Shown here: positions 24,977 to 61,725 of the stretch, piece after piece
How positions within the stretch are numbered: position 1 is the first letter of the stretch
How the letters are laid out: each line of letters starts with the position of its first letter
Origin: Bacillota bacterium
GTDB taxonomy: Bacteria > Bacillota > UBA994 > UBA5500
Assembly (NCBI GenBank): GCA_050949055.1
Contig: JBMNFA010000006.1
Coordinates: 11,759 to 75,758, forward strand
Direction: 5' to 3'
Length of the DNA: 64,000 nucleotides
The notes under the pieces: generated by a model
The model's database searches: none
The model's input: only the letters and a program-made list of their open reading frames with translations
What the model was told of the DNA's origin: nothing
Translations under genes and position numbers: made by a program

Positions 24977-25020
24977 ACAGCGGGACGTGTACCTATTGCG
25001 TACACGTCCCGCTCTGCTGT
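24977..25020. repeat. REP family B hairpin acagcgggacgtgtacc-N6-ggtacacgtcccgct
   Basis: 17-bp inverted repeat; other copies at 44939-44997 and 54634-54687. Confidence 0.7.
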
Positions 25021-26898
25021 GTGCCCGGCATGGGCGCTATCTACTAGGTGAAAGTCCTAAGCGGTGAAGGTAGCAGTAGCCGTAGCCTAAGGCAAGGGTG
25101 TCCACCGCGAGGTGGAATCTGAAGGAAGCCGGCGGCAAACTTCCGGCCTGAGGAACACATATCAGCTCATATGAGGCCAGTGACAGTTGGATGAGTCTGC
25201 AGCACAAGGCAAAGTCCATGCTACCGAAGGTTGTTGCTGGTAAATGAGACGGGTAGATGGAAGGAAAGATAGCGCTCTTACCCGGGGAGGCCTGCCAGGT
25301 ACGCCGACAGAGTTGGCAACCCAGACAGTGATGCCTGGCTGAACTGGCAGGAGTCAGCAGAGGCCATAGTACCTGAAGAGATATCGCTTCAGGGAAGGGC
25401 CGAACGCGAAGAAAGGAGAGCAACCGATGAGCTCGCATGGGAAGCAACGACAGCAGAAAATCCCGCAAGGGAGCTACCAGCAGGAGGAAGCAGTGAATCT
25501 GCAGGGGACTGCCGGAGCGCCTAGTTTCCCGACGGCGCGAATCGAGGAGCAATCCTGCCGGAACTGGACACATCTGATGGAGAACGTCGTATCAGAACGG
25601 AATATGAGAGAAGCGTACAAACGCGTCCTTCGGAACAAAGGAGCGGCCGGGATTGACGGAGTGGAGGTTCAGAACCTGAAACCATACCTCTGGGAACACT
25701 GGCCGCGCGTTAAGCAGGAACTGCTCGCGGGAACCTACAAGCCAAGCCCAGTCCGTCGGGTCGAAATCCCGAAACCAGACGGCGGAGTAAGGCTGCTAGG
25801 GATACCCACCGTCCTGGACCGGCTGATCCAACAAAGCCTACTACAAGTAATGAACTTCATCTTCGATCCTGACTTCTCTGAATACAGCTTCGGCTTCCGC
25901 CCTCGCCGCAGCGCGAGACAGGCGGTAACCAAAGCTAAGCAATATATCAACGAAGGCTACCGCTATGTTGTGGACATGGACCTGTCTAAGTTCTTCGACA
26001 GAGTCAACCATGACATATTGATGGCAAAGGCGGCCCGTGTAATCGGAGATAAACGAGCCCTGAAAGTTATCCGCGCATACCTCGAAGCCGGAGTCATGGT
26101 CAATGGCGTGGTACAGGAGACTGAAGAAGGGACACCTCAAGGTGGCCCGCTCAGTCCACTCCTGGCAAACATCATGCTGGATGAACTGGACAAAGAGCTA
26201 GAGAAACGGGGACACAGGTTCGTCCGTTACGCAGATGACTGCAACATTTATGTCAGAAGCAAACGGGCAGGAGAGCGAGTGATGAAGAGCATTCGCAACT
26301 TCGTGGAAGGCAAGCTTAAGCTGAAAGTCAACGAGGAGAAAAGCGCTGTTGACCGACCTTGGAAGCGCAAGTTTCTGGGGTTCTCATTCACTTCTCAACG
26401 CGAAGCCCGTATCCGAATAGCTCCTAAAACCAAACAGAGAGTCAAGGACAAAATACGGGAACTAACCAGCAGGCGCAAAAGTATGAGCATGGAAGCTCGA
26501 ATCATATCGCTAAACATGTACCTGCGTGGATGGATGGGATACTTCAAGTTGGCCGAAACTCCAAGTGTGTTCCGCGAACTTGATGAGTGGATTCGACGCC
26601 GCTTGCGCATGTGCTTGCTGAAGCAGTGGAAGAAGCCGAAAACCAGGAGGAGCGAGCTGATTAAGCTTGGCATCTCACCAGAGTCAGCTAAGAAGATTAG
26701 CGGATCACGCAAAGGTTACTGGCGACTCGCACTCACTCCACAACTAAACAAAGCCTTAGGCCTCCAGTACTGGAAGGCCCAAGGCTTATTCAGCTTAACT
26801 TCAGCATTGCCCAAAGGTTAAACTTCGCGAACCGCCGTATACCGAACGGTACGTACGGTGGTGTGAGAGGACGGGGGTTAGTCACCCCCTCCTACTCG
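25021..26898 (+). mobile_element. bacterial group II intron, class C-like (inserted directly 3' of a hairpin; RT/maturase without endonuclease domain)
   Basis: Starts GUGCCCGG right after REP-B. It contains the RT/maturase ORF. Domain V-like gaaccgccgtataccgaacggtacgtacggtgg lies at 26829-26863 and a domain VI hairpin with a bulged A at 26863-26897. The 3' boundary is approximate. Confidence 0.7.
25427..26821 (+). CDS. group II intron reverse transcriptase/maturase
   Basis: RT motifs 0-7 (...RVEIPKPDGGVRLLGIPTVLDRLIQ..., YADDCNIYV) plus the maturase X domain; 464 aa. Confidence 0.9.
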   Translation: MSSHGKQRQQKIPQGSYQQEEAVNLQGTAGAPSFPTARIEEQSCRNWTHLMENVVSERNMREAYKRVLRNKGAAGIDGVEVQNLKPYLWEHWPRVKQELLAGTYKPSPVRRVEIPKPDGGVRLLGIPTVLDRLIQQSLLQVMNFIFDPDFSEYSFGFRPRRSARQAVTKAKQYINEGYRYVVDMDLSKFFDRVNHDILMAKAARVIGDKRALKVIRAYLEAGVMVNGVVQETEEGTPQGGPLSPLLANIMLDELDKELEKRGHRFVRYADDCNIYVRSKRAGERVMKSIRNFVEGKLKLKVNEEKSAVDRPWKRKFLGFSFTSQREARIRIAPKTKQRVKDKIRELTSRRKSMSMEARIISLNMYLRGWMGYFKLAETPSVFRELDEWIRRRLRMCLLKQWKKPKTRRSELIKLGISPESAKKISGSRKGYWRLALTPQLNKALGLQYWKAQGLFSLTSALPKG

Positions 26899-26914
26899 AT
26901 ATTCGGTCGGTTTA

Positions 26915-28531
26915 CTACCAGGCGGCTACTTGGCCATCGGTGCGCGGCTCAGTGGCCGCCGCCAGCACTCCTGTCTCGGGATCGCGCCAGATGATCTCGC
27001 CGCGGCCGAAGCTGCCGGTCTCCAGCGTGCGCTGGATAACGTGGCCCTTGCGTGCCAAGGCTTGCGCGATATGGTTGGGGAAGCTGGGCTCAACCAGCAC
27101 CGTCTTGTCCTTCGTCCACTGCCAACGAGGGGCATCCAAAGCAGCCTGTGGGTTCAGATGGAAGTCAATGGTATTCATGATCACTTGCAGATGACCCTGG
27201 GGCTGCATGAACCCACCCATCACACCAAACGGGCCCACCGCTTGCTTGCCCTTGGTCAGGAAGCCAGGAATGATGGTATGGTAAGTGCGTTTGCCAGGCG
27301 CCAAAGCATTGGCATGGTCTTTGTCTAGGGAGAAGTTGTGGCCGCGGTTCTGCAATGCTATGCCGGTGCCCGGGATAACCACGCCGGAGCCAAAGCCCAT
27401 GTAGTTGCTTTGAATGTAAGAGATCATGTTGCCTTCACCGTCGGCCGCGGCCAGATAGACCGTGCCACCCTGCGGCGGATCGCCGGGTTCAGGCTGCAAC
27501 GCTGTATCTCCGATCAGCTGACGGCGCGTTTCGCCGTAGGACTCGGACAGCAGCGATTCCACGCTGACCCGCATGTGCTTGGGATCCGTAATCTGCTTCA
27601 AACCGTCTGCAAAGGCCAGCTTCAGGGCTTCGATCTGTTTGTGGTACCTTTCCACGCTGTCCATGTCCCTGAAATCCCAGCCCTTGAGGATGTTCAGCGC
27701 CATCAATGCGATCATGCCTTGTCCGTTTGGCGGAATTTCCCAAATATCGTAGCCTCGGTAATTGACACCCACCGGCGTTACCCAGTCGGCTTGATGAGCG
27801 GCCAGGTCTTCCGCCGTCAAGAAACCGCCATGCTCGGCCATGAAAGCGGCGATCTTTTCGGCTAGCTCCCCCCGGTAGAACGATTCGGCGTTGGTTTCGG
27901 CTATGGAGCGCAAAGTGGCTGCATGGCCAGGCGAACGCCACATCTCGCCGATGCCGGGAGCGTTGCCGCCGGGAGCAAAGGTATCTAGCCAAGGCTGGAA
28001 TACCGGATCCTCCAGGCTGCTGTAGCGGTTGTATCCGGCTGCCCAGGCCCGGCCCAGGGTGGGGGACAGCGGATAGCCGTTTTCTGCGTAGTAGATGGCT
28101 GGCTGCAGCACTTCTGTCAGCGGCAGACGGCCAAAGCGCTGGGAGAGGGCTGCCCAGGCGCTGGGTGCTCCGGGCACTGTCACAGGAATGGGGCCGAAGC
28201 GGGGCATCTCCTCATGGCCCAGTTCTTTCAGCTTATCGATGGATATGTTTTTCGGGGCGCGTCCGCTGGCATTCAGGCCGTGCAACTCGCCATTCACCCA
28301 GACCAGGGCAAAGGCATCACTGCCGATGCCGTTGGCAGTGGGCTCAACCACGGTCAGGCAGGCAGCTGTGGCGATGGCAGCGTCGATGGCGTTGCCGCCT
28401 TTCTTCAGGATCTCAAGTCCCGCCTGCGCTGCCAAGGGCTGTCCAGTACATACGGCGCCGTTGCGCGCGTAGACCACTGTTCTCTGCGATGGGTAGGGGT
28501 AAAACAGCGGATCATAGGTCACATTCGTCAT
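26915..28531 (-). CDS. ggt: gamma-glutamyltransferase
   Basis: GGT family throughout, including TVYLAAADGEGNMIS and the catalytic Thr region. The start is taken at the ATG at 28529-28531, which has SD ggagg 8 nt upstream. Confidence 0.85.
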   Translation of the reverse strand: MTNVTYDPLFYPYPSQRTVVYARNGAVCTGQPLAAQAGLEILKKGGNAIDAAIATAACLTVVEPTANGIGSDAFALVWVNGELHGLNASGRAPKNISIDKLKELGHEEMPRFGPIPVTVPGAPSAWAALSQRFGRLPLTEVLQPAIYYAENGYPLSPTLGRAWAAGYNRYSSLEDPVFQPWLDTFAPGGNAPGIGEMWRSPGHAATLRSIAETNAESFYRGELAEKIAAFMAEHGGFLTAEDLAAHQADWVTPVGVNYRGYDIWEIPPNGQGMIALMALNILKGWDFRDMDSVERYHKQIEALKLAFADGLKQITDPKHMRVSVESLLSESYGETRRQLIGDTALQPEPGDPPQGGTVYLAAADGEGNMISYIQSNYMGFGSGVVIPGTGIALQNRGHNFSLDKDHANALAPGKRTYHTIIPGFLTKGKQAVGPFGVMGGFMQPQGHLQVIMNTIDFHLNPQAALDAPRWQWTKDKTVLVEPSFPNHIAQALARKGHVIQRTLETGSFGRGEIIWRDPETGVLAAATEPRTDGQVAAW

Positions 28532-28693
28532 GGCATAACCTCCATCATCTGTAGGGAATAGTTCAGCCACTGTTGGCTGCTGGTGAAGATTTCTCGCTGA
28601 GCGCAAGGATCTCCTGCATCCTGCATACAGGATAAGGCGTTTTGCCTCCTGCATATTCTGCTCCATGCGAGGCTGCCATACTATGAGGAAGGA

Positions 28694-28740
28694 GACAGGG
28701 GGACGTACAAAGTGTCTCCTCGCGAGAGCGTCCCCCTGTC
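28694..28740. repeat. REP family C hairpin gacagggggacg...cgtccccctgtc
   Basis: 12-bp arms read directly; second copy at 37385-37446. Confidence 0.65.
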
Positions 28741-28759
28741 TCGGGCTGCCAGCCGCCCG

Positions 28760-29770
28760 TTACCTCCAGCGTTTGTACAACTCGGCCACAATCTGCTCGA
28801 TGGGGGCCTTACGGATTTCGATATCGATTACACCATCCAGTTTCGCTATTTCCGCCAGCACTAGTCTCACCGGGATGACAGCCGTATCGAACTCGTATTC
28901 ACTGTTGCTTCGTTCGCTATGGAGTAGTCTACCGCAGGGGAGAGGCTGGGCTTCGCCCCTAAAGGTCAGGCGCAATCGGCAAAGGCCACCTGTCAGCTGA
29001 CGCAGCTCTTCGAAGCTTCCGTCAAAGGCTATCTGCCCGTGGGACAGCAACACGATTCGCTGGGCCATTTCCTCCAGGTCGTCCATGTCGTGGCTGGTGA
29101 CGACGATAGTGGTTCCTTGCTCTCGGTTGATTTGCTTCAGAAAGTCTATCATCTGGCGCTTGGCCAACACATCCAGCCCCAGAGTGGGTTCGTCTAGGAA
29201 GATCAACTCCGGGTCATGCAACAGCATCAAACCCAAGTCGGCCCGCATGCGCTGCCCCAAGCTGAGTTCCCGGGCGAAAGTGTTCATCAAGTCAGATAGC
29301 TCCAGCAGTTCGCTAACCATAGCCAAGCGGCGTTGGTAGACAGACTGTGGGATGTTCCAGACAACCCGCTTCCATTCATAGCTGACCGCGACCGGGTGAT
29401 CCCACCAGAGCTCGGTGCGCTGCCCGAAGATAACCCCGATCCGTTTCATCAGATCCACTCGGGACTGCTCCGGTCTTAGCCCCAAAACGTAGACTTCGCC
29501 GCTGCTCGGCTGCATAATCCCCGCCAGGATTTTTATGGTGGTGCTCTTGCCTGCGCCGTTTGCCCCCGCATAGGCCACAAACTCTCCGCGCCCGATTTCC
29601 AGAGAGACGTCTTTCAGGGCGTCGACAGTTCTCTTCTCCGGCTTAACCAGGTTACGCAGGATGTCTTTCACGCTTCCGGATCGCTGCCATTGCACAAACT
29701 GCTTGCAGACGTTGTTCAGGCTAACTGCGATGTCCCCGGTCGTGATATCTAATTGAGCCCCGTTTGGCAT
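28760..29770 (-). CDS. ABC transporter ATP-binding protein (ABC-2 exporter type, with C-terminal extension)
   Basis: Walker A GANGAGKST, signature LSLGQRMR, Walker B LIFLDEPTLGLD. Confidence 0.85.
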   Translation of the reverse strand: MPNGAQLDITTGDIAVSLNNVCKQFVQWQRSGSVKDILRNLVKPEKRTVDALKDVSLEIGRGEFVAYAGANGAGKSTTIKILAGIMQPSSGEVYVLGLRPEQSRVDLMKRIGVIFGQRTELWWDHPVAVSYEWKRVVWNIPQSVYQRRLAMVSELLELSDLMNTFARELSLGQRMRADLGLMLLHDPELIFLDEPTLGLDVLAKRQMIDFLKQINREQGTTIVVTSHDMDDLEEMAQRIVLLSHGQIAFDGSFEELRQLTGGLCRLRLTFRGEAQPLPCGRLLHSERSNSEYEFDTAVIPVRLVLAEIAKLDGVIDIEIRKAPIEQIVAELYKRWR

Positions 29771-30566
29771 AATGTTTCATCCCTCTCTTAAACAACTTGG
29801 TGGCGATAAAAGCCAATGCAATGGTCACCATCAGTAAGAGAACTCCCGGCATGTCGCTTGGTGTCTGCCCGAGCAGTACATTGGCTGGGAACCATGCTGC
29901 TAGCCCTACCGGAACAACGGTACAGAGTATTGCCCGGGTGACCAGCGCCAGCCCTCCGATGGGGAACGTCTTGAGGGCACCAAACAGACCTATGGCCGTG
30001 GTGCTGATCTCTTCGCCTGCCACCGGGGCGTAAAAGGCGACGCTGCCTGCGATGTATGAGCAACTGAGGATGACTGCCACTGAGCAAAGGAGGCTGAACA
30101 GGAGGCTGCCAATCCACAGGCCGCTGACCGTCAGGGTCAATCGGCTGATTGCTGCCATAGTGATAGCGATGCCATAGAGCAGCGTGCTGTTGCCGGACAC
30201 AGGCAAGAAGCCCTCGCTGGCTAGCTGCATCCACAGCGGCACCGGTTGAATCAAACGATGATCAAGCTGCCCTCGGCCGATCAAGCGGCTGATCCAGGCC
30301 ACGTTGTTCATGCCAAAGAACATCGATATCACCCCATCTACTGTGCAGGCGTACCCCAGCATGAACAGCACTTGATCGGCGTTCATCCCGCCTATATTGT
30401 CAAACCGTTCTGCCAACAAGTAGACACCCAATGTGCTAGCTAAACTTGACGTAACATCAGCCAGAATACAGGCAACGCAGTATTTTGTATCCCGCAGGAA
30501 CCAGAGTAGGTCCATCTTGGCATAGATGCCCCAAAGCTGCCAGAGGCGTTTCATGCTAGCCACCAT
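29721..30566 (-). CDS. ABC-2 type transporter permease
   Basis: 281 aa, 6 predicted TM helices; operon with the ATPase. Confidence 0.7.
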   Translation of the reverse strand: MVASMKRLWQLWGIYAKMDLLWFLRDTKYCVACILADVTSSLASTLGVYLLAERFDNIGGMNADQVLFMLGYACTVDGVISMFFGMNNVAWISRLIGRGQLDHRLIQPVPLWMQLASEGFLPVSGNSTLLYGIAITMAAISRLTLTVSGLWIGSLLFSLLCSVAVILSCSYIAGSVAFYAPVAGEEISTTAIGLFGALKTFPIGGLALVTRAILCTVVPVGLAAWFPANVLLGQTPSDMPGVLLLMVTIALAFIATKLFKRGMKHYAKRGSIRYHDRGHRS

Positions 30567-31338
30567 AGGACACCATCCTTTCCTCGCTGCCCCGAAACGC
30601 CCAGATGGTGACGGGCCAGAACACCAAATTCCAGATTAGCTGCAATCCAATCAGTCGTAGCGGATCGCTGACGCCCACCAGAACCAGCAAAGGCGCGCTG
30701 GCCACTGAGCCGAAGGGTAGCATCTCCAGCGCCCGGCCCAAGCCCCAGGGCAGCAGGGCGAAGGGAATTACGGCTCCCGAGAACAGACTGGTGATCGCCT
30801 GCCTGATGGTGTAGGCTTGATAGCTGGCATTCTTCACGTAGATCACCAGGGAGGCGTATAGGAAGTCTAGGGCAAAGCCGAGGGAAACGGCTAGCAGTAG
30901 GCTGCACAAGAACAACGGGCCGTTGGTCGCTAGTATTGGCAGCAGATTGATGCCCAATAGGCCAGCGATACAGATCATCGGTAACGTATAGAGCGCCAGC
31001 CCCGGCAGCCAGCCGCCGACGGTCTCGGCTATCATTTGGCCTAACACCGGCAGCGGTCGCAGGTAGCGGGAGATGATCGAGCCTTCCCAAAAGGCGGTGG
31101 TGGCCGGTGTGATCACACTCAGTTGTTCCCTCAGTATGGATGCCAGCAGCGTATAGGCCAGTAGCTGCTCCAGGGTGAACCCGCCCAAATCTGCCCCCTG
31201 AGCGGCCAACGAGCGCCACAGGAGCAGCAGTATGACTAGGCTGGCCAGCTTCAACAGGTGGCCGCCAAGCATGTACAGCAGTCCCCCGTCAAAAGCCCGC
31301 GTAGCCGAGAGCTGTGTAGTAGTCAGGTATCTTTTCAC
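30556..31338 (-). CDS. ABC-2 type transporter permease (second)
   Basis: Multi-TM ORF. The preferred start is the GTG at 31336-31338, which has a strong SD gaaggagg 7 nt upstream; the ORF-track start at 31479 would begin inside the terminator. Confidence 0.65.
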   Translation of the reverse strand: MKRYLTTTQLSATRAFDGGLLYMLGGHLLKLASLVILLLLWRSLAAQGADLGGFTLEQLLAYTLLASILREQLSVITPATTAFWEGSIISRYLRPLPVLGQMIAETVGGWLPGLALYTLPMICIAGLLGINLLPILATNGPLFLCSLLLAVSLGFALDFLYASLVIYVKNASYQAYTIRQAITSLFSGAVIPFALLPWGLGRALEMLPFGSVASAPLLVLVGVSDPLRLIGLQLIWNLVFWPVTIWAFRGSEERMVSYGG

Positions 31339-31391
31339 CTGAATGTCCTCCTTCAGTTTTACAAGTCGTCCGCAAGCATATAGCCCTGGGC

Positions 31392-31507
31392 AGACAAAAG
31401 CCCGCGGGCTGTTGGTTCGCCCGCGGGTATCTGTGCGCAAGTCTAATACCACAATCCTGGTACATGACCAAAGGCACACAAAAAACCGCGGGCAGCAACA
31501 CCCGCGG
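31392..31507 (-). promoter_or_regulatory. two tandem intrinsic terminators in the 5' leader of the ABC-2 operon (T1 31480-31507, CCGCGGGUGUUGCUGCCCGCGG + U6; T2 31392-31427, CCCGCGGGCGAACCAACAGCCCGCGGG + CUUUUG)
   Basis: Hairpins read directly. All four arms share the self-complementary CCCGCGGG, which allows alternative pairings. Confidence 0.55.
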
Positions 31508-31551
31508 TCTATCGATAGCTTTAGCTGTTCGGCGAAATGATCACCTCATGC

Positions 31552-31674
31552 TCAGCTGATCGCAGGGACCCCAGATGCTGCAAAAGGGCATACTACTCCC
31601 TTGGGGGTGCTCCTGAATCCTACGATCCGATGCATGATCATGAAGTAATCGGTGTTGTAGCCTTTTGTCTGCAC
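31552..31674 (-). CDS. candidate 40-codon leader/small ORF (GTG start; VQTKGYNTDYFMIMHRIVGFRSTPKGVVCPFAASGVPAIS)
   Basis: Near-consensus promoter (-35 ttgccc, -10 tataat, 17-bp spacer, at 31709-31737) and SD GGAGGG 7 nt before the GTG. The ORF ends 45 nt before terminator T1. Confidence 0.35.
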   Translation of the reverse strand: MQTKGYNTDYFMIMHRIVGFRSTPKGVVCPFAASGVPAIS

Positions 31675-31878
31675 TGCAAGTCCCTCCTTTATCACAGATT
31701 CACTAACGATTATAATCTGGCAGCGAGCATGGGGCAAGGGGTAATTTGGTATCAGGCTAAAGATTGCACGCCAGCAGGGAGGCCCCCAGAGCGCCGGTGA
31801 ACTGGCAGTCGGAGGTGAGTTGGTGGCGCTGGTGGAACACCGCGACGGCACGTTGATCGATGTGGTGCGGAGGGTGGT

Positions 31879-31986
31879 ATGGGGAACAGCTTGTTGGCGG
31901 TGAAGGAAAAGCTTTATCAACTGCAGCTGGAATTGCTGCAACAAGCCACGGGGACGGTTCGGCTGACTCATCGCAACGAGTCATGA
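31879..31986 (+). CDS. Spo0E-like small ORF truncated by IS insertion (MGNSLLAVKEKLYQLQLELLQQATGTVRLTHRNES)
   Basis: SD GGAGGG 5 nt before the ATG. The helical LxxLxxEL...G.LTH pattern is like Spo0E-family phosphatases. Its stop codon is the terminal TGA of the IS. Confidence 0.3.
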   Translation: MGNSLLAVKEKLYQLQLELLQQATGTVRLTHRNES

Positions 31987-32258
31987 GGTGCCCCCTGTCG
32001 AGTTGACAAACGAAATAATGAAAGCGTTTGCTCCTTAGGAATGACCCTGAGGAGCCTTCTTTCTTGGGATGTCTTAAGCAATACAGCCAATGGTTGCTGG
32101 CCACGGCTCTCCCTGTCGGAGCCCTGAGCAGTACCACAGGGTGAGTCCCTTGACCCCTGTGCTACAATTTTGTGCGCAGAGGGGCGATGAGGTATCTGCT
32201 GTGCTCTCCCTACCATCGCCCCTCGCACCTTCGTTAAGCACAGGGAGTCAAGGGCGAT

Positions 32259-33017
32259 TTATGCACACATTCTGTACTCCATCGGGGTCAGACCAGAAAA
32301 CTTCCTTTGCGGTCGTTCTTCGTTGTAGAAGCGTATATAGTCACTTACGTCGGCTACCAGATCTTCGTAGCTCTCGTAATACTTTCTTAGGTTGTAGCGC
32401 TCTGCTTTGGGCTTGCCCCAAAATCCTTCCATGGGGCCATTGTCAATGCAGCGGCTTACTCTTGACATGCTTTGGATCATGCCCTGATTCGTGATAATCT
32501 TGGCAAAACCATAGGAAGTATATTGGAAGCCTCTATCGCTGTGAATGAGGGGCTGTGCTTCTGGATTGGCCTTCAAGGCTGCCTGCAATGTGCTAAAGAC
32601 AAGCTTGTTGTTATTCCTCTTACCAATGACATAGGCAACAATACTGTTGTCGTAAAGGTCGAGAATGGCGCTCAGGTATGCTTTCTGACCGTCGCCATAC
32701 TTGAACTCGGTTACATCTGTAAGCCATTTCTGGTTCTTCCTCAAAGCTGTGAACTTTCTGTTCAGCAGGTTCTCAGCAACATGTCCAGGCGAAGACTTTT
32801 TGTATTGTCTGCGTTTCTTTCGAGTGACCGATTTCAGACCCATAAGTCGCATCAACCGATAGATTCGTTTGAGGTTGTACGTTGCCTGTAGCCTCCGGTT
32901 CACGACCAGTTGCATCATCCTGTAGCCGTAGATACCCTTGACCTCCAGGTAGATACCAGCTATTGTGTCAGCGATTAACTCGTTTGTCCGCTCTCGCTCA
33001 CTTGGTTCCTTCTTCAA
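32259..33017 (-). CDS. IS3-family transposase OrfB (DDE integrase core); expressed as an OrfAB fusion by -1 frameshift
   Basis: IHSDRGFQYTS DDE-core motif; -1 frame relative to orfA. Confidence 0.85.
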   Translation of the reverse strand: MKKEPSERERTNELIADTIAGIYLEVKGIYGYRMMQLVVNRRLQATYNLKRIYRLMRLMGLKSVTRKKRRQYKKSSPGHVAENLLNRKFTALRKNQKWLTDVTEFKYGDGQKAYLSAILDLYDNSIVAYVIGKRNNNKLVFSTLQAALKANPEAQPLIHSDRGFQYTSYGFAKIITNQGMIQSMSRVSRCIDNGPMEGFWGKPKAERYNLRKYYESYEDLVADVSDYIRFYNEERPQRKFSGLTPMEYRMCA

Positions 33018-33133
33018 ATAATTGTAGTGCGCCTGGCGGCTGATGTTGGCAACCCTGCATAACTCAGAGATAGAGTGGCCTTTGCTGTGCAGTTCGTGGA
33101 TTGCCTGATGGAGTTTAAATCGTGGAACTCGGC

Positions 33134-33811
33134 CTAGCGATACCTCTTCTCGAGTTCCTCCAATTTTTTTAGGAATGCGTTCTCCACGCTCAGTCTGCGA
33201 ACTTCCTTCTGCAGATTACGAAGCTCAATCTTCAGCCGATCGGCCTCTGTCAACTCAGTTTCCTCTTTGGCTTTGCCTCGGCGGTCAACAAGTGCCTTCT
33301 CTCCGCCTTTGTTATACTTACTAACCCAAGAGTGAACCTGCTGGTAGCTGACCTTATAGAGCTCCGCTGCCTCCCGGTAGTTACAGTCATTGGCTATACA
33401 ATGTTGGACAATCTCTATACGCTCATCGTAGGTGGTTCTCCGCCCTTTGTTCATGTCTCTGGATTCCCCTCCTGGAGAAGACTTGAGTTCTTCTCCTTGA
33501 GTATACTTGAAAATCCAGCGCCGAAGTTGCGTTTCCTCCCTTATGCCGTACCTAAGGCAGATGTCCATTTGAGAGCCTTCTCCCGTCAGGTAGGCTTGTA
33601 CAGCTTGCATCTTAAGCTCAGCAGGATAATGATTACTACTCAATTGCCCGACCAGGGAGTCTATACCATATTCCTGTAACCTAATACGCCATCGACGTAT
33701 TGTACTCTTGCCTACGTTGAACCTGGAAACTGCCTCTTTGACTGGATGCCCTTCATCAATCCATGCAAGTATTCGTAGCTTCTCTCCCAAAGTGAACTTG
33801 CGTCCGGACAA
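33134..33811 (-). CDS. IS3-family transposase OrfA (HTH)
   Basis: HTH-rich 225 aa ending ...FLKKLEELEKRYR just after the AAAAAAA frameshift site. Confidence 0.85.
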   Translation of the reverse strand: MSGRKFTLGEKLRILAWIDEGHPVKEAVSRFNVGKSTIRRWRIRLQEYGIDSLVGQLSSNHYPAELKMQAVQAYLTGEGSQMDICLRYGIREETQLRRWIFKYTQGEELKSSPGGESRDMNKGRRTTYDERIEIVQHCIANDCNYREAAELYKVSYQQVHSWVSKYNKGGEKALVDRRGKAKEETELTEADRLKIELRNLQKEVRRLSVENAFLKKLEELEKRYR

Positions 33812-33916
33812 AAGAATGCCCCCCCCCTCAGCGACTGATGAATTTTCGTTATTTCATCTGTCAACTTTGGGGGGAGCACATCAGTCGGACCGTCCCCGTG
33901 GCTCAATTTCAGGCTA

Positions 33917-37384: not shown

Positions 37385-37446
37385 GACAGAGGGACGTACA
37401 ATTCGTCCCCAATGAAAGAGCGAGACCAACTGTACGTCCCCCTGTC
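37385..37446. repeat. REP family C copy 2 (gacagagggacgtaca ... tgtacgtccccctgtc)
   Basis: 16-bp arms around a 30-nt spacer that itself contains a small hairpin. Confidence 0.65.
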
Positions 37447-44902: not shown

Positions 44903-44938
44903 GCGAAATAGGGAAGCTATATTCCCACTCTTTCGATG

Positions 44939-44997
44939 ACACAGCGGGAGTGTACCTGGTAACACAGCCATGTTACAGGGTACACGTCCCGCTGTAT
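44939..44997. repeat. REP family B copy 2 (acagcgggagtgtacc...ggtacacgtcccgctgt)
   Basis: 16-17-bp arms with a palindromic spacer. Confidence 0.7.
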
Positions 44998-45175
44998 CAT
45001 TTCGAAGGACGTTGATCTTGCAGCCAGTGCTTTTAGGTGAAGGGTATCTGCCTACTGGTGGAGAATGAAGATGCCCGAACGGTCTTGGAGGATCGACGAA
45101 ACTTGTTTGTGGGAGGGTGATACGCATGCGTCCGGAAGTAGTTCAGTTCAGACCAGGAATGCCAGTACGAGCAAG

Positions 45176-52054: not shown

Positions 52055-52373
52055 GATGCTTTGTGCGAGAGCAAAGGTGCCAAGCCGCTCCCTTGTCGGA
52101 GCAACCCCAGCGTAGCCATAAGTCAGGACGTTCGCAAATCCTGAGCCAGCCGATCTTGCGGACCGGGGAATGAACCCACAAGCGGTCCAGTTGGAGGAAG
52201 ACACATATAGCACACGAGATAATCTGCGCAGCAGCCTGGGGCTAACTGGTGTTGTCACCGGGCTCCTCTTCCGTGAGAGGACGGTTGCGATGGCGCATGT
52301 TGGCCAGAGAAGCGTTGGCAGTATGGAAGGACCTAGCGTTTCTGCCCTGACACGGGGGGAAAGTCCCCTCGTG

Positions 52374-53264
52374 TCACTCGCTATACATCTCCTCGGCATC
52401 TTGGGGCAAGGCGCGTACATGTCGTAAGTGGGCACTCACCCGGCGGTCGTCCTCCAGCGGATAGGTGAAATTGAAGTGTGCAGCCACGGTTTGGGCCGTG
52501 TCGCGGAACAGATCGCCAGCCGCAAACAGTGCCTCCCAAGTAGCCTGGTAACTGCCCTCGGCATAGGTGGTCAGCAGGCGATTCCAACTGTCGGGCGAGA
52601 TGTGCTGGTCGAGATACTTATAGCCCTTGCCCACACTGAGCGAGAAATTGCTGTTGATGCCAGCTTGCCACTCCAGCATCCGGAGCAGCATGTCGCGCAC
52701 CAAGTCCAGCATCTGTTTGGCGTAGATCAGTTCCTGGCGCCAGAGGCCCTTGGCTACATAGGGTGACACCCACCAGAACTCGTTACAGCAATCGGCGAAT
52801 TGTCGAGCAGTCGGGGGCTTGACCCAGTAGTCTTCATCGGAAGGCGGGGGAATCTCCGGCAGCCGGTTATCTTTGTCCAGCAGTGCGACGGTCAGCTTAT
52901 CTTCCTGCAAATAGTCATCCTTCAGTTCCAGCCGGAGCAGGCTCAGGTCTATCCGGTTGCCATCCATGAATTGCATCAGGTATGTGAAGCGGCCCTTGTC
53001 CAGCGGGGGAACCAGGCCCATCGCTTCCGGCATCTGCATGATCATCCGCTCGCCAAAGACATCCACCCAGCTGTGATCTCGGAGGAAGGATTCCAGTTCC
53101 GTTACCAGGTAGACAACGTCATAGTCTTGAAAGCAGTCCTTGGGGACGTTAGGATTGGTGCGCGAGCCATTCATCAACACCGCCCGCACCCGCTCGTCCC
53201 GCCTAGCAACGCCCAGTATCAGTTGCATCATCTCTCGTTCGGTTCTCATGATCATCATCCTCAT
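52374..53264 (-). CDS. aminoglycoside 6-adenylyltransferase, ANT(6)/AadK family
   Basis: MRTEREMMQLILGVARRDERVRAVLMNGSRTNPNVPKDCFQDYDVVYLV closely parallels the AadK/AadE N-terminus. Confidence 0.8.
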   Translation of the reverse strand: MRMMIMRTEREMMQLILGVARRDERVRAVLMNGSRTNPNVPKDCFQDYDVVYLVTELESFLRDHSWVDVFGERMIMQMPEAMGLVPPLDKGRFTYLMQFMDGNRIDLSLLRLELKDDYLQEDKLTVALLDKDNRLPEIPPPSDEDYWVKPPTARQFADCCNEFWWVSPYVAKGLWRQELIYAKQMLDLVRDMLLRMLEWQAGINSNFSLSVGKGYKYLDQHISPDSWNRLLTTYAEGSYQATWEALFAAGDLFRDTAQTVAAHFNFTYPLEDDRRVSAHLRHVRALPQDAEEMYSE

Positions 53265-54614: not shown

Positions 54615-54633
54615 AGGGCGCGGGAATGGCAGA

Positions 54634-54687
54634 GACAGCGGGACGTGTACCTCGTATCATCGCGTGATACAAGGTACTCGTCCCGCT
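54634..54687. repeat. REP family B copy 3; bidirectional terminator
   Basis: acagcgggacgtgtacc ... ggtactcgtcccgctg between convergent genes. Confidence 0.7.
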
Positions 54688-54710
54688 GCATCATGCGGTC
54701 TGCTTGTTGC

Positions 54711-55856
54711 TTATTGACTGGTCACCAACAGGTAGATGGCGGCTACCAACAACAAGCCGAGCGCTATGCAGGCCGTCACTTTCAAAGCACTTACCGGAGC
54801 TTCCCCATGCACTTCACCGGTCTGGCCGTTGACGATGAAGCTATACGCCTTTCCCTGGTAGTTGTACGACGACATCCAGAGCGGTAGCAACAGATGCTTG
54901 AAAGCGATCTTTTGGAACGAGGTGGTGAACTGCAGAGCCCGCACCTCGTCGCCGTTAATCTGCCGCACGATCCCCTGGGCAATCTTCTGTTTGATGGCTG
55001 CCTTGGCCCGTTCCCATCCCTGCTTGACGCCGATGGTGTACTTCTCGGCGGCGAAGCCGGAAAGGTATTCTGGCCGGTACTCTGTCAATTGAGCCAGATC
55101 GTAGTGGCCAAAGGTGCCGGCCAACACTTCGTCCAGGCGCTGCGATGCGTGCACCAGTTCGTCATCGTAATACTTGGCGTAGGTGCCGCTGACCGGTCGC
55201 CAGCTGGTGCGCCGCTCCTGTCGATGCTCGGTGACCGTCTTGCCGTTCCTGGTCACCGTTACTGGCACCGTTACCCAATAGTAGGTGCCCTTTTGTGCCC
55301 GATAGGCGGAGTAGGTGTCCGCGTCGTAGGTCCAAAAGGGGATGTAGATCCCCTGCAATTGTTTTGCCTGGTAGCTGTGTTTCAGATCGCTGGGCGCGAA
55401 GAAACGGCTACTGACCCACTTCCTGAATGCTTGCTCTGCGGCCGACTGGGTGATCTTGAACGGAATCAACGATTCAGGCTTGATGCCGGGCAACTGATCC
55501 AGTTGCACCACCTGGGCCGAGCCGCAGAACGAGCAGTTCTGGGCAGCGCGATTGGCTTCCAGCACCGTCTCAGCTCCGCAGTTATCGCAGCGGATCACTT
55601 TGGTGACCTGCCCCCAGTCGGTAGAACATTGCAGCTCTCCCTCGGCCAGGTCGTATTCTTTCACTTCGCCGCCCTCACTGCTGATTTCCACCTGATGGCG
55701 GCAGTAGGGGCAGGCCAAAGCTTGCGTCTCGGGGTCGAAGACCATATCGGCACCGCATTGCGGACAGGGGAAGCGGTCGACAGCCGTGATTTCATGAGTT
55801 TCGTTCGGGATCTGCTGTTCCATCGCCCCGTCCTCCGTCATAGCTTCTGGCCACAC
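54711..55856 (-). CDS. zinc-ribbon protein with C-terminal TM anchor (YdjG-like?)
   Basis: Three CxxC pairs (CPQCG, CPYC, CDNCG...CSFCG) and a C-terminal hydrophobic helix; co-operonic with the SPFH protein. Confidence 0.55.
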   Translation of the reverse strand: MWPEAMTEDGAMEQQIPNETHEITAVDRFPCPQCGADMVFDPETQALACPYCRHQVEISSEGGEVKEYDLAEGELQCSTDWGQVTKVIRCDNCGAETVLEANRAAQNCSFCGSAQVVQLDQLPGIKPESLIPFKITQSAAEQAFRKWVSSRFFAPSDLKHSYQAKQLQGIYIPFWTYDADTYSAYRAQKGTYYWVTVPVTVTRNGKTVTEHRQERRTSWRPVSGTYAKYYDDELVHASQRLDEVLAGTFGHYDLAQLTEYRPEYLSGFAAEKYTIGVKQGWERAKAAIKQKIAQGIVRQINGDEVRALQFTTSFQKIAFKHLLLPLWMSSYNYQGKAYSFIVNGQTGEVHGEAPVSALKVTACIALGLLLVAAIYLLVTSQ

Positions 55857-56929
55857 TCAGGGCAGAATTTCATATTGCGGTCAGCCTCAAATCCGCATGA
55901 GCTGCACTTCTTAGTGGTCGCCAGACTGTTACCGCACCCAGGGCAGAACTTGAATGACTCGGGCACAGCCATGCCGCACTCAGGACAAAAGCGCTTTCCC
56001 AAAGTGTCGGTTTGGGGAGCAGGCTGGCTGACAGGTGCTGCAGGTGCTGGTGTGGGAGTTGGCGCTGGCTCTCCGCTCATCGCCTGGGTCAGTGCCTTTC
56101 CTAGCGCGGCACCGGCACCCAGGCCTACGCCTGCAGCAGCCACCCCTCCACCCTCGTTGTTGGCCGCTTCGCGCAGTGCTTCCGCCGCCTGATACTGGGC
56201 ATAGCGGCCGAGATCGCCAACGATGCCCATAGAGGTGCGTTTATCCAGTACCGCTTCCACTTCCTTAGGCAGGGAGACATTCTCAATAGTAAACGAAGTG
56301 ATGTCCAAGCCATACTCAGCGAAGCGGGGGCGCAGCTTGTGCGCTGCCTGCTCGCTTAACTCGTCATAATGCATGGAGATATCCAGCGCCGCGATCTGCG
56401 ACTCAGCCAGCAGATCGCTCAGCCCGGAGATGGCAGTGGATCGCAGTTGACCCACTATCTCTTCGCTGGTGAAATGGCCGCTGGTGCCGAAGACTTCCTT
56501 GAGCAGTTTCGCCGGATCGACCGCTCGGAAGGCAAATACCCCGTAGGCGCGTAGCCGCAACATGCCGAACTCCCGGTCACGCATGATGATCGGATTGGCT
56601 GTGCCCCATTTCTGCTGGGTGAATTGCTTTGTGTTGACGAAATAGACTTCTGCCTTAAAAGGCGAATTGAAGCCATATTTCCAGGACTTCAGCTTGGTCA
56701 ATATCGGCAAGTTGGCGGTGGACAGCTGATAGCGTCCTGGGCTGAACACGTCTGCTATCTGTCCCTCGTTTACGAAGACCGCATTCTGTGCCTCCCTTAC
56801 CGTCAGCTGCGCCCCCATCTTGATCTCTTTGTTGGCTACCGGGAATCGGTAGACCAGGGTGTCACTGCTGTCGTCTGTCCACTCGATTACCTCGATGAAC
56901 TGGCTCTTGATGAAGCCAAACAATCCCAC
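55838..56929 (-). CDS. SPFH/band-7 domain protein with C-terminal tandem zinc ribbons
   Basis: SPFH core followed by a Gly/Ala/Pro-rich linker and CPECG...CPGCG...CSSCG...CPECG. Confidence 0.7.
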   Translation of the reverse strand: MGLFGFIKSQFIEVIEWTDDSSDTLVYRFPVANKEIKMGAQLTVREAQNAVFVNEGQIADVFSPGRYQLSTANLPILTKLKSWKYGFNSPFKAEVYFVNTKQFTQQKWGTANPIIMRDREFGMLRLRAYGVFAFRAVDPAKLLKEVFGTSGHFTSEEIVGQLRSTAISGLSDLLAESQIAALDISMHYDELSEQAAHKLRPRFAEYGLDITSFTIENVSLPKEVEAVLDKRTSMGIVGDLGRYAQYQAAEALREAANNEGGGVAAAGVGLGAGAALGKALTQAMSGEPAPTPTPAPAAPVSQPAPQTDTLGKRFCPECGMAVPESFKFCPGCGNSLATTKKCSSCGFEADRNMKFCPECGQKL

Positions 56930-57002
56930 CGGTCATCCCCTCCACATACGAATTTCTAAGATAATTATATCAGCACTGATGCGGGGGGATAGCCCTTGCC
57001 TA

Positions 57003-58119: not shown

Positions 58120-59241
58120 ATGAACTACAGCGCCAGATGGCGGCGATTGCAGAGCGCCATGCAACGCGAGCGATTGGATGGCATCGTCTATGGCAGCGGT
58201 GCCAACTTCCAGTATCTGAGTGGCCTGCAGCAAACCTGGCAGCGAGAACATGAGCCGGCCGAACCAGACTGCCTGCTGGCTTTGACGGCCAGCCAACCGC
58301 CGCTGGTGGTCTGCAGGCGGTATCCGGGTGTAAACCCGGCCAACCTGCGAATAGAGGCGGCCGCATCGCTGCAAGAGGCCGTCGCTTTGCTGCGCAATTA
58401 CCTGAATGGGCAGAGGGTTGGCGTCAGCAGCCAGGCGGCCGCCTATCTGAGCGAGCTGGTTGGGCAAGCACTGCCTGGAGCCGTTTGCCCCGTGGCGGAA
58501 GAGATGGGCGCAGAGCTGCGCCAGGTCAAAGACGCCGACGAAGTTGAGCGCATCCGAAAAGTGGTAAACTTGACCGACCGGGTGATGGCACAGGTGCTCC
58601 CATTGATCCGCCCCGGTATCACCCAGCCCGAGCTGCAACAGCAGATTGCCCAAGCAGGGCTGGCCCTCGGTGCCCAGGACGTTTCTTTTACGCCCGCGGC
58701 CCTTTATGTCAAGTCGGGTACTACACCCACTGCAGAGCCATTCGTTTATCCACAGGACCAAGGCTTGGTGCCAGGCACCTCCATCGCCCTTGACTTCGGT
58801 TTTGTGCTCGATGGCTACTGTTCGGATTTCGGGCGTTCCTTCTACTGCGGGCCGGCTCCCGAACATATCTCCGGTGCCTACCGGACCCTACAAGCCGGCC
58901 AGTGCCATCTGATCAGCCAGCTACGCCCAGGCATGCGCATCAGCCAGCTATACGGCATACTGGAAGCTTTCCTCGACGAACACGGCTATGGCGATCGCCT
59001 GCGTGCCCGCCTTCCCGACGGTACCTTAGGTCACCAGATCGGCGTTGGCCTACACGAGGACCCCTGGCTGAGGCCGACCAGCGAGCGACAGTTGCAGCCC
59101 GGCATGGTGATGGCTATCGAACCAAAGTTGTGGTTCCCAGGGGAGTATTATCTGCGTGTGGAGGATATCGTCGTGATCACCGAAAACGGTGCAGAGGCGC
59201 TGACCAAGTTTGACCGGGAAACATTTGAGTTGCCGCTATGA
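58120..59241 (+). CDS. M24 family metallopeptidase (Xaa-Pro aminopeptidase-like)
   Basis: Creatinase N-domain plus the pita-bread fold with metal ligands (D..D..H..E..E pattern: IALDFGFVLDGYCSDF, HQIGVGLHE, AIEP, RVED). Confidence 0.8.
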   Translation: MNYSARWRRLQSAMQRERLDGIVYGSGANFQYLSGLQQTWQREHEPAEPDCLLALTASQPPLVVCRRYPGVNPANLRIEAAASLQEAVALLRNYLNGQRVGVSSQAAAYLSELVGQALPGAVCPVAEEMGAELRQVKDADEVERIRKVVNLTDRVMAQVLPLIRPGITQPELQQQIAQAGLALGAQDVSFTPAALYVKSGTTPTAEPFVYPQDQGLVPGTSIALDFGFVLDGYCSDFGRSFYCGPAPEHISGAYRTLQAGQCHLISQLRPGMRISQLYGILEAFLDEHGYGDRLRARLPDGTLGHQIGVGLHEDPWLRPTSERQLQPGMVMAIEPKLWFPGEYYLRVEDIVVITENGAEALTKFDRETFELPL

Positions 59242-59490
59242 TCAGCGGAGGGGCCTTGCTCTTGACCTTACCGGCTCAACGGCCAGCCATTGATTGACCA
59301 GTAGCTCGGATTCGGACTTAACTGCGCTGTAGACCGCCGAGAGCGCGCACCACCTCTTCCGCAGGCTCAATCCCAGCAAAGGCCAACGCAGATAGCTTGT
59401 GACGCGCGCGGCACCGTGCCTGGCAGACTGGTCTTCGTGCTTCATAGAGTCTATAATGGTGGCAACAGCTGCAACTTTGGAGGGGATGAA

Positions 59491-60198
59491 ATGATACCAA
59501 CGCCACACATCGCCGTTTCCGAGCAGGGGATCATCGCTGAGACCATTTTGCTGCCAGGAGATCCGCTGCGCGCCAAGTTCATTGCTGACAAATACCTGGA
59601 GGGGGTTGTTCAGTTTAACGGCACCAGAAACATGCTCGGCTTCACAGGTACCTACCACGGTAAACGAGTTTCAGTGATGGGGACCGGCATGGGCATGCCT
59701 TCCATCGGTATCTATTCTTACGAGCTGATCCACTTCTATGGGGTGAAGAACTTGATCCGCGTCGGTTCCTGCGGGGCTTTCCAGCCAGATATCAAGGTGC
59801 GAGACATCATCGTCGGCATGTCTGCTTCCACTGACTCCAATTTCGCAGAGCAGTATGCCTTGCCTGGCACCTATGCTCCCACCGCCTCCTGGTCGTTGCT
59901 CAAGCGGGCTGTGGATGTGGCCGAGAGCAAAGGGATCCCAGTCAAAGTAGGCAACATCCTATCTTCGGACGTCTTTTACGGCGATGACCCCGAATCATGG
60001 AAGAGATGGGCCAAGATGGGCGTGCTGGCGGTGGAGATGGAAGCGGCTGCGCTGTACATGAATGCCGCCCGTGCCGGCGTCGACGCCCTCTGCATTCTCA
60101 CAGTGTCCGACTCGCTGGTCTCCCATCAGCTGGTCAGCGCTGAGGAAAGGCAGAACACGTTCACGCAGATGATGGAGATAGCGCTGGAGTTGGCATAG
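59491..60198 (+). CDS. deoD: purine nucleoside phosphorylase, DeoD type
   Basis: 235 aa; conserved DeoD family sequence ([10 protein letters not shown]..., [19 protein letters not shown]); SD ggagggg before the ATG. Confidence 0.9.
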
Positions 60199-60264
60199 TG
60201 TGACAGAGGGACGGATCTTTTGTCACACGCGGCGTGTGACAAAAGATCCGTCCCTCTGTCACAT
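60198..60264. repeat. REP family D: intact 67-bp palindrome gtgtgacagagggacggatcttttgtcacacg-cgg-cgtgtgacaaaagatccgtccctctgtcacat
   Basis: Near-perfect 30-bp arms; the same element is split by IS copy 2 at 61726-61765 / 63664-63689. Confidence 0.8.
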
Positions 60265-61712: not shown

Positions 61713-61725
61713 ACCTCCAATCGTA

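Follow-up and report, generated by a model that had tools for sequence, protein, structure and literature searches.

An earlier note on a stretch of 64,000 nucleotides (nt) from a Bacillota bacterium (assembly GCA_050949055.1, contig JBMNFA010000006.1, positions 11,759 to 75,758; hereafter referred to as the window) described three families of dispersed palindromes, B, C and D, and likened them to the repetitive extragenic palindromic (REP) sequences. The question raised by this locus is whether the palindromes are independent hairpins or members of a single kind of element and, if the latter, which enzyme could have spread them. After the analysis described below, we consider it probable that B, C and D, together with a further element E, belong as subfamilies to a single superfamily of mobile repeats, miniature and non-coding, which is tied to a transposase of the RayT-like or TIRYT type.

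As a search for elements in the window, we used an inverted-repeat scan and a covariance model, R1. All seven palindromes of families B, C and D were found by the scan and by inspection of the sequence at the sites given in the note (for details see Table 1), and their number is far above chance: the motif ACAGNGGGACG, with one mismatch or less, has 17 matches in the window, against 4.3 +/- 2.0 in dinucleotide-preserving shuffles, none of 100 of which reached 17, and 13 of these 17 matches fall inside the reported palindromes. A chance origin of the window palindromes is excluded. In addition, we identified elements not listed before, that is, element E around the first copy of an insertion sequence (IS) and two short forms, and found B1 and C1 to be shortened; altogether, 8 full or split elements and 2 short forms lie within 40 kb of the window. 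Among the three families, D is, as judged from its sequences, the youngest, the arms of D1 being perfect and D2 being 97% identical to D1.

The long palindromes consist of two units arranged head to head, and all doublets in the window are in this arrangement. The unit is about 31 nt in length, with the consensus nnTGAGACAGGGGGACGGTTCTyTTGTCTCAnn, and each arm of the palindrome is a hairpin by itself, in which the 4-5 bases 5' of ACAG pair with the bases 3' of TTGT. The resulting stem of 7-9 bp is made up of ACA/TGT and 4-5 variable pairs, and within it lies a purine-rich arm that carries the nearly invariant G-GGGACG core; the common doublet reads xxxxACAGGGGGACGGTTCTyTTGTx'x'x'x' - short spacer - xxxxACAArAGAACCGTCCCCCTGTx'x'x'x'. 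Pairing was counted on a set of 299 arms chosen irrespective of structure: 145 arms had 6 or more of the 7 Watson-Crick pairs possible between the 5' flank plus ACA and the 7-mer at a fixed offset, as compared with 37 in the control with exchanged flanks. Covariance of the arm sequences, an analysis proposed in the note, was indeed detected, since double-sided changes at the four outer stem pairs numbered 35, 33, 47 and 56 in an alignment of 148 distinct units that was pre-filtered for at least 5 of 7 pairs and thus leans towards structure. The units tend to start with TG and to finish with CA. The loci of foreign genomes (identified by handles beginning with L) contain 77 head-to-head doublets, besides 8 tandems, 3 tail-to-tail pairs and 20-30 clean singlets. 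When folded, the G-rich strand gives an uninterrupted hairpin of 15 bp that includes G-U pairs (-22 kcal/mol), while the C-rich strand forms the outer stem only (-13 kcal/mol). Despite this difference between the strands, the singlets show no bias of orientation relative to the upstream gene (6 vs 9, by crude gene calls), and a strand-specific RNA role is therefore not favoured as the primary function.

Partial tandem duplications of the ends (xACAGGGGGACG followed by xACAGGGGGACGG...) are frequent, with the break falling on the tip of the unit hairpin or close to it; examples are found at L030 229-300, L031 100-170, L104 4395-4445, L115 1-60 and L124 1890-1960. The break could be a point of cleavage and rejoining, or a site of template switching.

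The common origin that the note had proposed for the three families was supported by covariance model R1, which was built solely from units of foreign genomes and contains zero window sequence. R1 gave two matches of 44.2 and 43.8 bits in D1 (E 6e-11), 34.2 bits in D2 (15.2 bits for its right remainder), 31.5 bits in C1, 19.8 and 16.1 bits in C2, 25.8 bits in B2, and 17.1 and 13.2 bits in B3, and no match with E < 0.05 was obtained in the window beyond the reported sites. Because this foreign-only model matches all three, B, C and D are taken as subfamilies of one superfamily. The main difference between them is in the variable segment after GGGACG, which is TGTACC in B, TACAA in C and GATCT in D. 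Element E carries a core of the GGGGACGG type, and its core variant ACGGGGACGG also adjoins transposase genes in L175 and L194.

The link to a transposase came from the foreign loci. After probing all ORFs (open reading frames) of these loci with RAYT (REP-associated tyrosine transposase) and IS200 sequences, we obtained one weak match, in L104, where the ORF is classified as Y1_Tnp by Pfam and a unit is located about 35 nt past its stop codon. The L104 protein has 4,750 database homologues, mostly of exactly 252 amino acid residues and 60-75% identical across Clostridia, some of which are labelled 'REP element-mobilizing transposase RayT' by the source databases. Many of the homologues are on contigs of 1-2 kb, which would fit genes bracketed by repeats, and three over-extended gene calls translate the unit itself into ..QGDGSFV.. 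(alignment A3). In order to obtain loci independent of the repeat, a total of 80 metagenome loci (L122-L201) were chosen by protein similarity alone, and then searched with R1. In most of them, a unit on the plus strand ends 40-75 nt before the ATG, and a unit on the minus strand begins 0-30 nt past the stop codon. By motif count, the core is present upstream in 57 of 70 loci (median 64 nt to the ATG; 10th-90th percentile 60-74) and its reverse complement is present downstream in 46 of 69 loci (median 15 nt past the stop); both ends carry the core in 37 of 59 loci, against a background of 32 in 1,241 windows elsewhere in the same loci. Each transposase locus has ends that are inverted repeats of one another, the variable stem included. 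In L056, complete doublets frame a 41%-identical gene, and they are of the subfamily to which the dispersed copies on that contig also belong. The REP-like nature claimed in the note thus gained support, in that most of the 80 loci, which had been chosen independently, carry the unit at fixed distances on the two sides of a RayT-like Y1 gene. At L122-L201 the left unit passes at its 3' end into TTGACA, about 45 nt upstream of the ATG, with a TGnTATAAT-like box about 17 nt further on; on this sequence arrangement, the left terminal repeat seems to provide the transposase promoter with its -35 element.

As to the class of this transposase, the best NCBIfam match is NF047646 REP_Tyr_transpos, with scores of 64.1 and 79.5 bits (cut-off 80), while the IS200 model gives at most 19 bits for the same proteins; the respective E-values are 1e-17 to 2e-22 for the RAYT model, and 1e-3 or none for IS200. 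In alignment A3, the HUH, Y and WSS motifs are invariant, and the C-terminal part carries a GLSIRQIERLTG.SFGVIR segment; a C-terminal helix-turn-helix (HTH) was read from the alignment, Pfam reporting Y1_Tnp only. RAYT-like proteins framed by long inverted repeats were named TIRYTs, and the corresponding cassettes TIRtrons, by Di Nocera et al. 2013 (PMC3733652), who noted the motif GGGGWSAS in many of the terminal inverted repeats as well as moderately abundant families of dispersed repeats; one of the TIRYTs given as examples there is from the Firmicute Desulforudis. The 252-residue protein is 37% identical to that Desulforudis TIRYT (E 4e-33), and carries the TIRYT signatures MPR..., AYCLMxNHxHLL, GHLxQxRYKS and RYIxxNP. 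The inverted repeats of our loci are mostly GGGGACGG, with 1 mismatch to the published GGGG[AT][CG]A[CG], and GGGGACAG is found in L146/L147 and in a further set of window repeats, family A. The TIRYTs constitute subclass 2.1 of TnpA_REP, which has a C-terminal HTH (Quentin et al. 2018, PMC6006769). The Group 1 RAYTs, which reach into Clostridia, are weakly associated with repeats, the flanking 16-mer having 12 occurrences (Bertels et al. 2017, PMC5581495); TIRYT or subclass 2.1 is probably the same as this Group 1.

Family A, ATGCAAAAACGGGGACAGTCCCCGTTTTTGCAT(T/C)CT, is present at 4403-4438, 9928-9963 and 24285-24320 of the window with 97-100% identity, and is built like a bidirectional intrinsic terminator. 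The centre, GGGGACAG, agrees with GGGG[AT][CG]A[CG] of the TIRYT-flanking repeats, and family A has GGGGAC/GTCCCC in common with families B-D. Possibly, it is a second family of repeats within this system.

The distribution of the element was examined by a pattern scan, ACAGNGGGACG-N8-38-CGTCCCNCTGT, over one genome per bacterial species. At least 117 loci were obtained, most of which, among those listed, carry the canonical form of 50-60 nt with similarity far beyond the search pattern, while chance alone would, by a rough estimate, yield about 20-30 matches to this 20-base pattern in 596 Gb. The hosts among the matches listed include Clostridia (Lachnospiraceae, Oscillospiraceae, Syntrophomonadaceae, Pelotomaculum, Sedimentibacter and Desulfosporosinus), Bacilli (Bacillus litorisediminis, Mesobacillus, Virgibacillus and Pallidibacillus), Coriobacteriia, including isolates of Olsenella and Thermophilibacter, and metagenome-assembled genomes of Prevotella. 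The shortest matches (30-36 nt; Streptomyces, Nocardia, Deinococcus and Gemmatimonadota) appear to be GC-rich hairpins that have no relation to the element. Copies of the B and D types have counterparts of 85-88% identity in L051 and L109, B2 being 88% identical to the element of L051 (uncultured Clostridia), and copies within one genome are near-identical, the variable stem included. No matches were found in a viral contig collection. Clustering of the neighbouring ORFs of the at least 117 loci gave no clue, only ABC ATPases, two-component systems and Fe-S proteins being recurrent, and the ORFs between closely spaced elements encode toxin-antitoxin pairs, rlmN and similar. Spurious ORFs that translate the repeat (RQGDGSLVS, TREPSPCL, ETGGRFSCL) are common in the foreign loci.

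Against this distribution, the note's remark that such a repertoire is unusual for a Firmicute was not supported. The element itself is present in many Clostridia and Bacilli, while the density in the window may represent an expansion at the level of the species: three relatives of the window organism (80-88% GGT identity; 45 kb in total) carry one weak copy, and because of this the high density in the window looks lineage-specific and may be recent. Among these relatives (L118-L120), synteny is poor at the C1 and B1 sites and L119 alone is informative. At the site orthologous to C1, this 88%-identical relative carries a different palindrome at 8139-8190, GAGGGTGGAACGCGGGGACTGTCCCCCCGTTCCACCCTC, with a GGGGAC-N-GTCCCC tip.

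Mobility is indicated by orthologous genes that carry the element at different sites. In two Prevotella metagenome-assembled genomes, L034 and L109, the element is in frame within the same rsmF-like gene at two different sites, each of which is without the element in the other genome, and in Pelotomaculum L018 an in-frame copy is located in the N-terminal codons of an ABC ATPase gene, which L029 has without the copy. The in-frame sites are at L018 3000-3110, L034 2640-2720 and L109 1060-1150, and the copies add about 19-25 residues, for example GAQGDGSFVSSSTTQKNRPPVLP.

In many Firmicutes, the 252-residue RayT-like HUH-Y1 protein ('TIRYT', RAYT subclass 2.1-like) is encoded by a cassette, of which the units are the terminal inverted repeats. 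Since the units frame the transposase gene as inverted ends, the dispersed head-to-head doublet would be the left end plus the right end of the cassette without the gene, as REPINs relate to RAYT genes. The transposase, presumably encoded once elsewhere in the genome, would recognise the folded unit on single-stranded DNA, and would cut and rejoin it, so that singlets and doublets spread in trans. Binding and cleavage of the repeat as single-stranded DNA have reportedly been demonstrated for the TnpA_REP of E. coli alone. We infer that the elements are mobilised by this transposase, of which the window genome would then encode at least one copy.

A number of points weigh against this reading. 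The search for RAYT- or IS200-like genes that the note had proposed was positive for the superfamily in other genomes and negative inside the window: no transposase gene or remnant was detected in the window or in L118-L121. None of the 80 transposase loci carries a variable segment of the B, C or D type, and the cores of B and C read GGGACGT, as opposed to the nearly constant GGGGACGG of gene-adjacent units. The consensus unit, nnTGAGACAGGGGGACGG..., has no unpaired GT[AG]G at its foot, its 5' flank being paired in the stem. The element-free sites of L034 and L109 hold other sequence, so that these are not clean insertions. Because the foreign loci were selected for head-to-head palindromes, the proportions of arrangements given above and the copy numbers per genome are biased, and the host range was taken partly from metagenome-assembled genomes, which can be mis-binned. 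Finally, no REP-like sequences were found beside the genes of subclass 2.1 by Quentin et al. 2018 (PMC6006769).

The alternative that survives best is that the palindromes are fixed functional hairpins, such as terminators, protectors of mRNA 3' ends or binding sites of host proteins, whose similarity is due to selection. Elements are indeed located near stop codons (median distance 13 nt in the foreign loci, by crude gene calls) and, in L022 and L081, after tRNA genes; as RNA, the window elements fold with -28 to -61 kcal/mol and z-scores of -5.5 to -13.8 (-27.6 kcal/mol and z -7.1 for B1; -61.2 kcal/mol and z -13.8 for D1); some foreign copies (L002, L049, L048) have runs of A and T like bidirectional terminators, and the different hairpin of L119 with its GGGGAC/GTCCCC tip stands at the site orthologous to C1. 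In contrast, none of the B-D copies in the window carries the T tract of an intrinsic terminator, the sole call of a terminator scan among these copies being a marginal one on the minus strand of B1. C2 lies between divergent genes, singlets are indifferent to orientation, and the in-frame copies occupy different sites in orthologues. Copies of one genome are near-identical even in the variable stem, and units stand at fixed distances on both sides of a transposase gene. We thus regard fixed hairpins as an improbable primary explanation, while a secondary role of the mobile elements as transcript hairpins is likely, and their stability may influence the stability of 3' ends or read-through.

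The claim of the note that the elements serve as insertion targets was supported for both kinds of insertion, that is, the IS and a group II intron. The IS was assigned to the IS3 family by Pfam domains (rve/HTH_21 and HTH_28/HTH_Tnp_1), by NF033516 (255 bits vs a cut-off of 160) and by its ends TGAGG...CATCA. Both copies lie inside elements: copy 2 is flanked by a 3-bp ACA duplication (61763-61765 and 63664-63666) in the right unit of D2, and copy 1 occupies the equivalent site in E, where no clean duplication is seen (GTCA/GTCG). The two insertions suggest that this IS is specific for the elements. The left inverted repeat of the IS, TGAGGTGCCCCCTGTCGAG (61766-61790), and the element core have the 9-mer CCCCCTGTC in common, which might underlie the choice of target, or may be a coincidence. 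The two copies differ by 2 nt in a run of C near the start of OrfA (33815-33830 vs 63601-63610), with an OrfA of 225 residues in copy 1 and of 247 residues in copy 2. IS1397 and ISKpn1, also of the IS3 family, are said to insert specifically into REP/PU palindromes of enterobacteria; the present IS is alike in its location, twice near the centre of a palindromic repeat and once with a 3-bp duplication, and differs in host phylum and in the repeat, with two insertions here.

This association also allows the reverse reading, in which the elements are miniature inverted-repeat transposable elements (MITEs) derived from a DDE-type IS, for instance from this IS3-family element, and moved by its transposase. 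The units tend to TG...CA like IS3 ends, the 9-mer is common to the left IS repeat and the core, and both IS copies are physically associated with elements. The prediction of target-site duplications is not borne out, as none flank the elements in the foreign loci, where the flanks are either complementary or unrelated rather than direct repeats; beyond the 9-mer, there is no resemblance between the elements and the ends of the IS, and more than 100 genomes carry elements with no tie to this IS, the framed gene there being of the Y1 and not of the DDE type. The IS is a guest in the elements, because it lies inside them with its own 3-bp duplication. An origin from a DDE-type IS is therefore considered very unlikely.

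The group II intron encodes a reverse transcriptase/maturase (ORF 25427-26821, 1,395 nt; TIGR04416, 437 bits) with RVT_1 and GIIM domains only and no endonuclease domain, and its RNA outside the ORF is about 490 nt. A contig from another sequencing run, L121, is 99.9-100% identical to 24288-32011 of the window and is without 25019-26900, thereby showing the empty site ...CGTCCCGCTCTGCT|ATTCGG and placing the insertion exactly 3 nt after hairpin B1. By its size, domains and target, rather than by phylogenetic placement, the intron appears to be class C (IIC)-like. Bacterial class C introns are said to insert just downstream of terminator-like stem-loops or attC sites. The present intron is like them in its small ribozyme, its endonuclease-less reverse transcriptase and its insertion just 3' of a stable hairpin; unlike their terminator-like stem-loops, hairpin B1 is a REP-like repeat without a T tract.

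The adjoining of one element by such an intron, together with the form of imperfect palindromes of about 55-70 nt, conserved in their outer and variable in their inner parts, would also fit integron attC-like or other recombinase sites, with targeting of the intron to be understood from the use of attC by IIC introns. The elements, on the other hand, have no R''/R' boxes (RYYYAAC / GTTRRRY), there is neither an integrase gene nor a cassette array, the copies are scattered among housekeeping genes, and the associated gene is that of a Y1 transposase, leaving this explanation scarcely credible. As for chance palindromes or unrelated terminators with a common G-rich motif, which some public matches of 30-36 nt resembling generic GC-rich hairpins and the 20-30 expected pattern matches might bring to mind, the excess of motif matches in the window, the perfect 32-nt arms of D1, E-values down to 6e-11 from a model blind to the window and at least 117 loci mostly of the canonical 50-60 nt form reduce its probability to practically nil.

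The superfamily tied to a RayT-like transposase was then compared with the known systems. As in the REP/REPIN-RAYT systems of E. coli, Pseudomonas and Stenotrophomonas (Nunvar 2010; Bertels and Rainey 2011, PMC3116915), there is a short hairpin unit in singlets and inverted doublets, folding into long hairpins, dispersed extragenically near gene ends, with several families per genome; a RAYT-clade HUH-Y1 gene is flanked by the same repeats (in other genomes), and the repeats are targeted by ISs. Unlike REPs and REPINs, the unit has no 5' GTAG and is conserved in its purine-rich arm G-GGGACGG instead of in a GC-rich stem, its own stem being variable and covarying from family to family, and the hosts are Firmicutes, Coriobacteriia and Prevotella, not Proteobacteria. 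The transposase differs from the classical RAYT in its greater length (252 residues), its C-terminal HTH and a score just under the cut-off of the RAYT model. Classical REPs tagged with GTAG or CGTC have not been reported from Firmicutes (Di Nocera 2013, PMC3733652). An identity of the window repeats with these tagged REPs was rejected, as the tag followed by a stem of 8-9 bp, a loop of 4-5 nt and CCA differs from the unit.

The likeness to TIRtrons lies in the Y1 protein with its signatures and HTH extension, in the framing of the gene by inverted repeats, whose motif approximates GGGG[AT][CG]A[CG], and in the dispersal of the same repeats as singles, dimers and clusters, some of them self-complementary; unlike in TIRtrons, the motif is off by one position in most copies. 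In contrast to the findings of Quentin and of Bertels for subclass 2.1 and Group 1, the repeats here adjoin about 80% of the loci and are dense. With IS200/IS605 and the gene-less PATEs (palindrome-associated transposable elements), the system has in common an HUH-Y1 enzyme, subterminal hairpins as recognised ends and the lack of target duplication; it differs from IS200/IS605 in that the RAYT model fits far better, the ends are true mutual inverted repeats, the derivatives are perfect palindromes and there is no tnpB. As in the Rickettsia palindromic elements (RPE) and intragenic REPs, palindromes are tolerated in frame within coding genes (L018, L034/L109), but sequences and hosts are unrelated to those of RPE and the window copies are all extragenic. 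On these sequence comparisons, the window repeats would be a Firmicute family with its own hairpin unit within the known REP/REPIN-RAYT kind, on its TIRYT branch.

Searches for a previous description gave nothing specific. Rfam at gathering thresholds (window plus 10 foreign loci) reported only the intron, tRNAs and riboswitches, and in the lax E-value mode D1 matched only generic miRNA-hairpin models. The core strings of the element were found in literature text only in unrelated eukaryotic primers, and a keyword search returned general REP papers, none on the element. In the literature searched, there was no account of the 252-residue Firmicute clade and its hairpin unit as a repeat family.

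Table 1. Palindromic elements of the window and the insertions found in or beside them
Feature	Position	Strand	Structure	Arms	Remarks
B copy 1 (B1)	24970-25022		shortened palindrome, ACAGCGGGACGTGTAC-CTATTGC-GTACACGTCCCGCTCT	23 nt, 87%	downstream of apparently truncated APH-family gene
B copy 2 (B2)	44936-45000		head-to-head doublet; 1-nt deletion in left core	14 nt, 93%	
B copy 3 (B3)	54632-54692		head-to-head doublet	24 nt, 92%	fold -39.3 kcal/mol
C copy 1 (C1)	28692-28742		full left unit GGAGACAGGGGGACGTACAAAGTGTCTCC and truncated right unit	14 nt, 100%	
C copy 2 (C2)	37385-37446		imperfect doublet	23 nt, 87%	
D copy 1 (D1)	60197-60265		canonical doublet	32 nt, 100% complementary	
D copy 2 (D2), left part	61724-61765		left unit, spacer and beginning of right unit		to IS insertion point
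D copy 2 (D2), right part	63664-63689		remainder of right unit		beyond IS
Element E, left	31944-31983		left unit AGCCACGGGGACGGTTCGGCT and spacer		broken by IS copy 1; absent from earlier note
Element E, right	33884-33903		right arm GTCGGACCGTCCCCGTGGCT		beyond IS copy 1
Short-form palindrome	23165-23195		GAAACAGATGGGGAC-A-GTCCCCATCTGTTTC		outer motifs only
Short-form palindrome, weak	52349-52378		TGACACGGGGGGA-AAG-TCCCCTCGTGTCA		model match 14.1 bits, E 0.1
Group II intron	25019-26900	+	GTGTG...CGAT, 1,882 nt		Rfam group II D1-D4 domains
IS3-family copy 1	31984-33883	-	1,900 bp		inside element E
IS3-family copy 2	61766-63663	-	1,898 bp; OrfA 62916-63659, OrfB 62041-62799		inside D2

All B-D copies of the window are extragenic, as the note had stated, while its description of them as mostly between convergent genes was found to apply to 2 of the 7 only, B1 and B3; by Pfam-supported gene calls, B2, C1, D1, D2 and E are located between co-directional genes, and C2 in a divergent region. 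B2 lies between the genes for an M20 peptidase and a Fic protein, B3 between a serpin gene (+) and a zinc-ribbon gene (-), and C2 between the genes for ETF-beta and a nitroreductase/GNAT protein. C1 is located 19 nt past the stop codon of an ABC ATPase gene and upstream of ggt, and D1 directly follows the TAG stop of a PNP_UDP_1 gene, the next gene being 29 nt beyond its end.

Some genes next to the elements are also of note. The APH-family phosphotransferase ORF at 24394-24948 covers only positions 24-134 of a profile of 239 and stops 22 nt before B1; because there is no room before ggt for the remainder, the gene looks truncated, with the break at the repeat, and the same state is found in L121. 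The AhpC/TSA peroxiredoxin gene at 61077-61919 appears to be split by a frameshift, with profile positions 48-122 in ORF 61077-61547, and a plausible start with a GGAGG ribosome-binding site is found in another frame near 61708, 17 nt from D2. Two adjacent zinc-ribbon genes are located on the minus strand at 54711-56929, of which 55838-56929 encodes SPFH/Band-7 with a double zinc ribbon and 54711-55856 several N-terminal zinc ribbons; a plus-strand ORF of 432 residues overlapping both has no family match and is probably no gene. The 499-residue ORF at 48851-50350, with a weak match to DDE_Tnp_1 and the IS1182 family, lies in the stretch of lowest GC outside the IS copies (0.51, 48-50 kb), and may be a third, degenerate insertion sequence.

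The REP/REPIN-RAYT system is a classic example of a transposase that has become domesticated and lives alongside miniature repeats of its own, and has been studied almost only in Proteobacteria. The conserved 252-residue RayT-like protein and the unit of about 31 nt might constitute an undescribed partnership of the REPIN-RAYT type, Firmicute-wide and extending to Coriobacteriia and Prevotella, a proposal which we put forward tentatively and with less confidence than its opposite. If true, the marks of this partnership would be a purine-rich arm for recognition beside a stem that covaries freely, partial duplications of the ends with their break at the tip, the provision of the -35 box by the left end, and in-frame copies translated as ...QGDGSFV...; the coexistence of B, C, D and E in one Bacilli-like genome would then imply either several cognate transposases or one relaxed enzyme.

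For the annotation of this genome, the palindromes of the window are to be labelled as repeat elements, and not as terminators or RNA genes. The repeats explain recurrent assembly breaks and spurious small ORFs (QGDGSLVS, TREPSPCL) in Firmicute genomes and metagenome-assembled genomes, and they provide landing pads for an IS3-family IS and for a IIC-like intron, the latter with a natural empty site. The 252-residue Y1 protein and the 31-nt unit with its fixed GGGACGG core offer a candidate pair of enzyme and substrate, through which the same REPIN-type logic, with a different hairpin, would operate in Gram-positive bacteria and in gut and rumen anaerobes.

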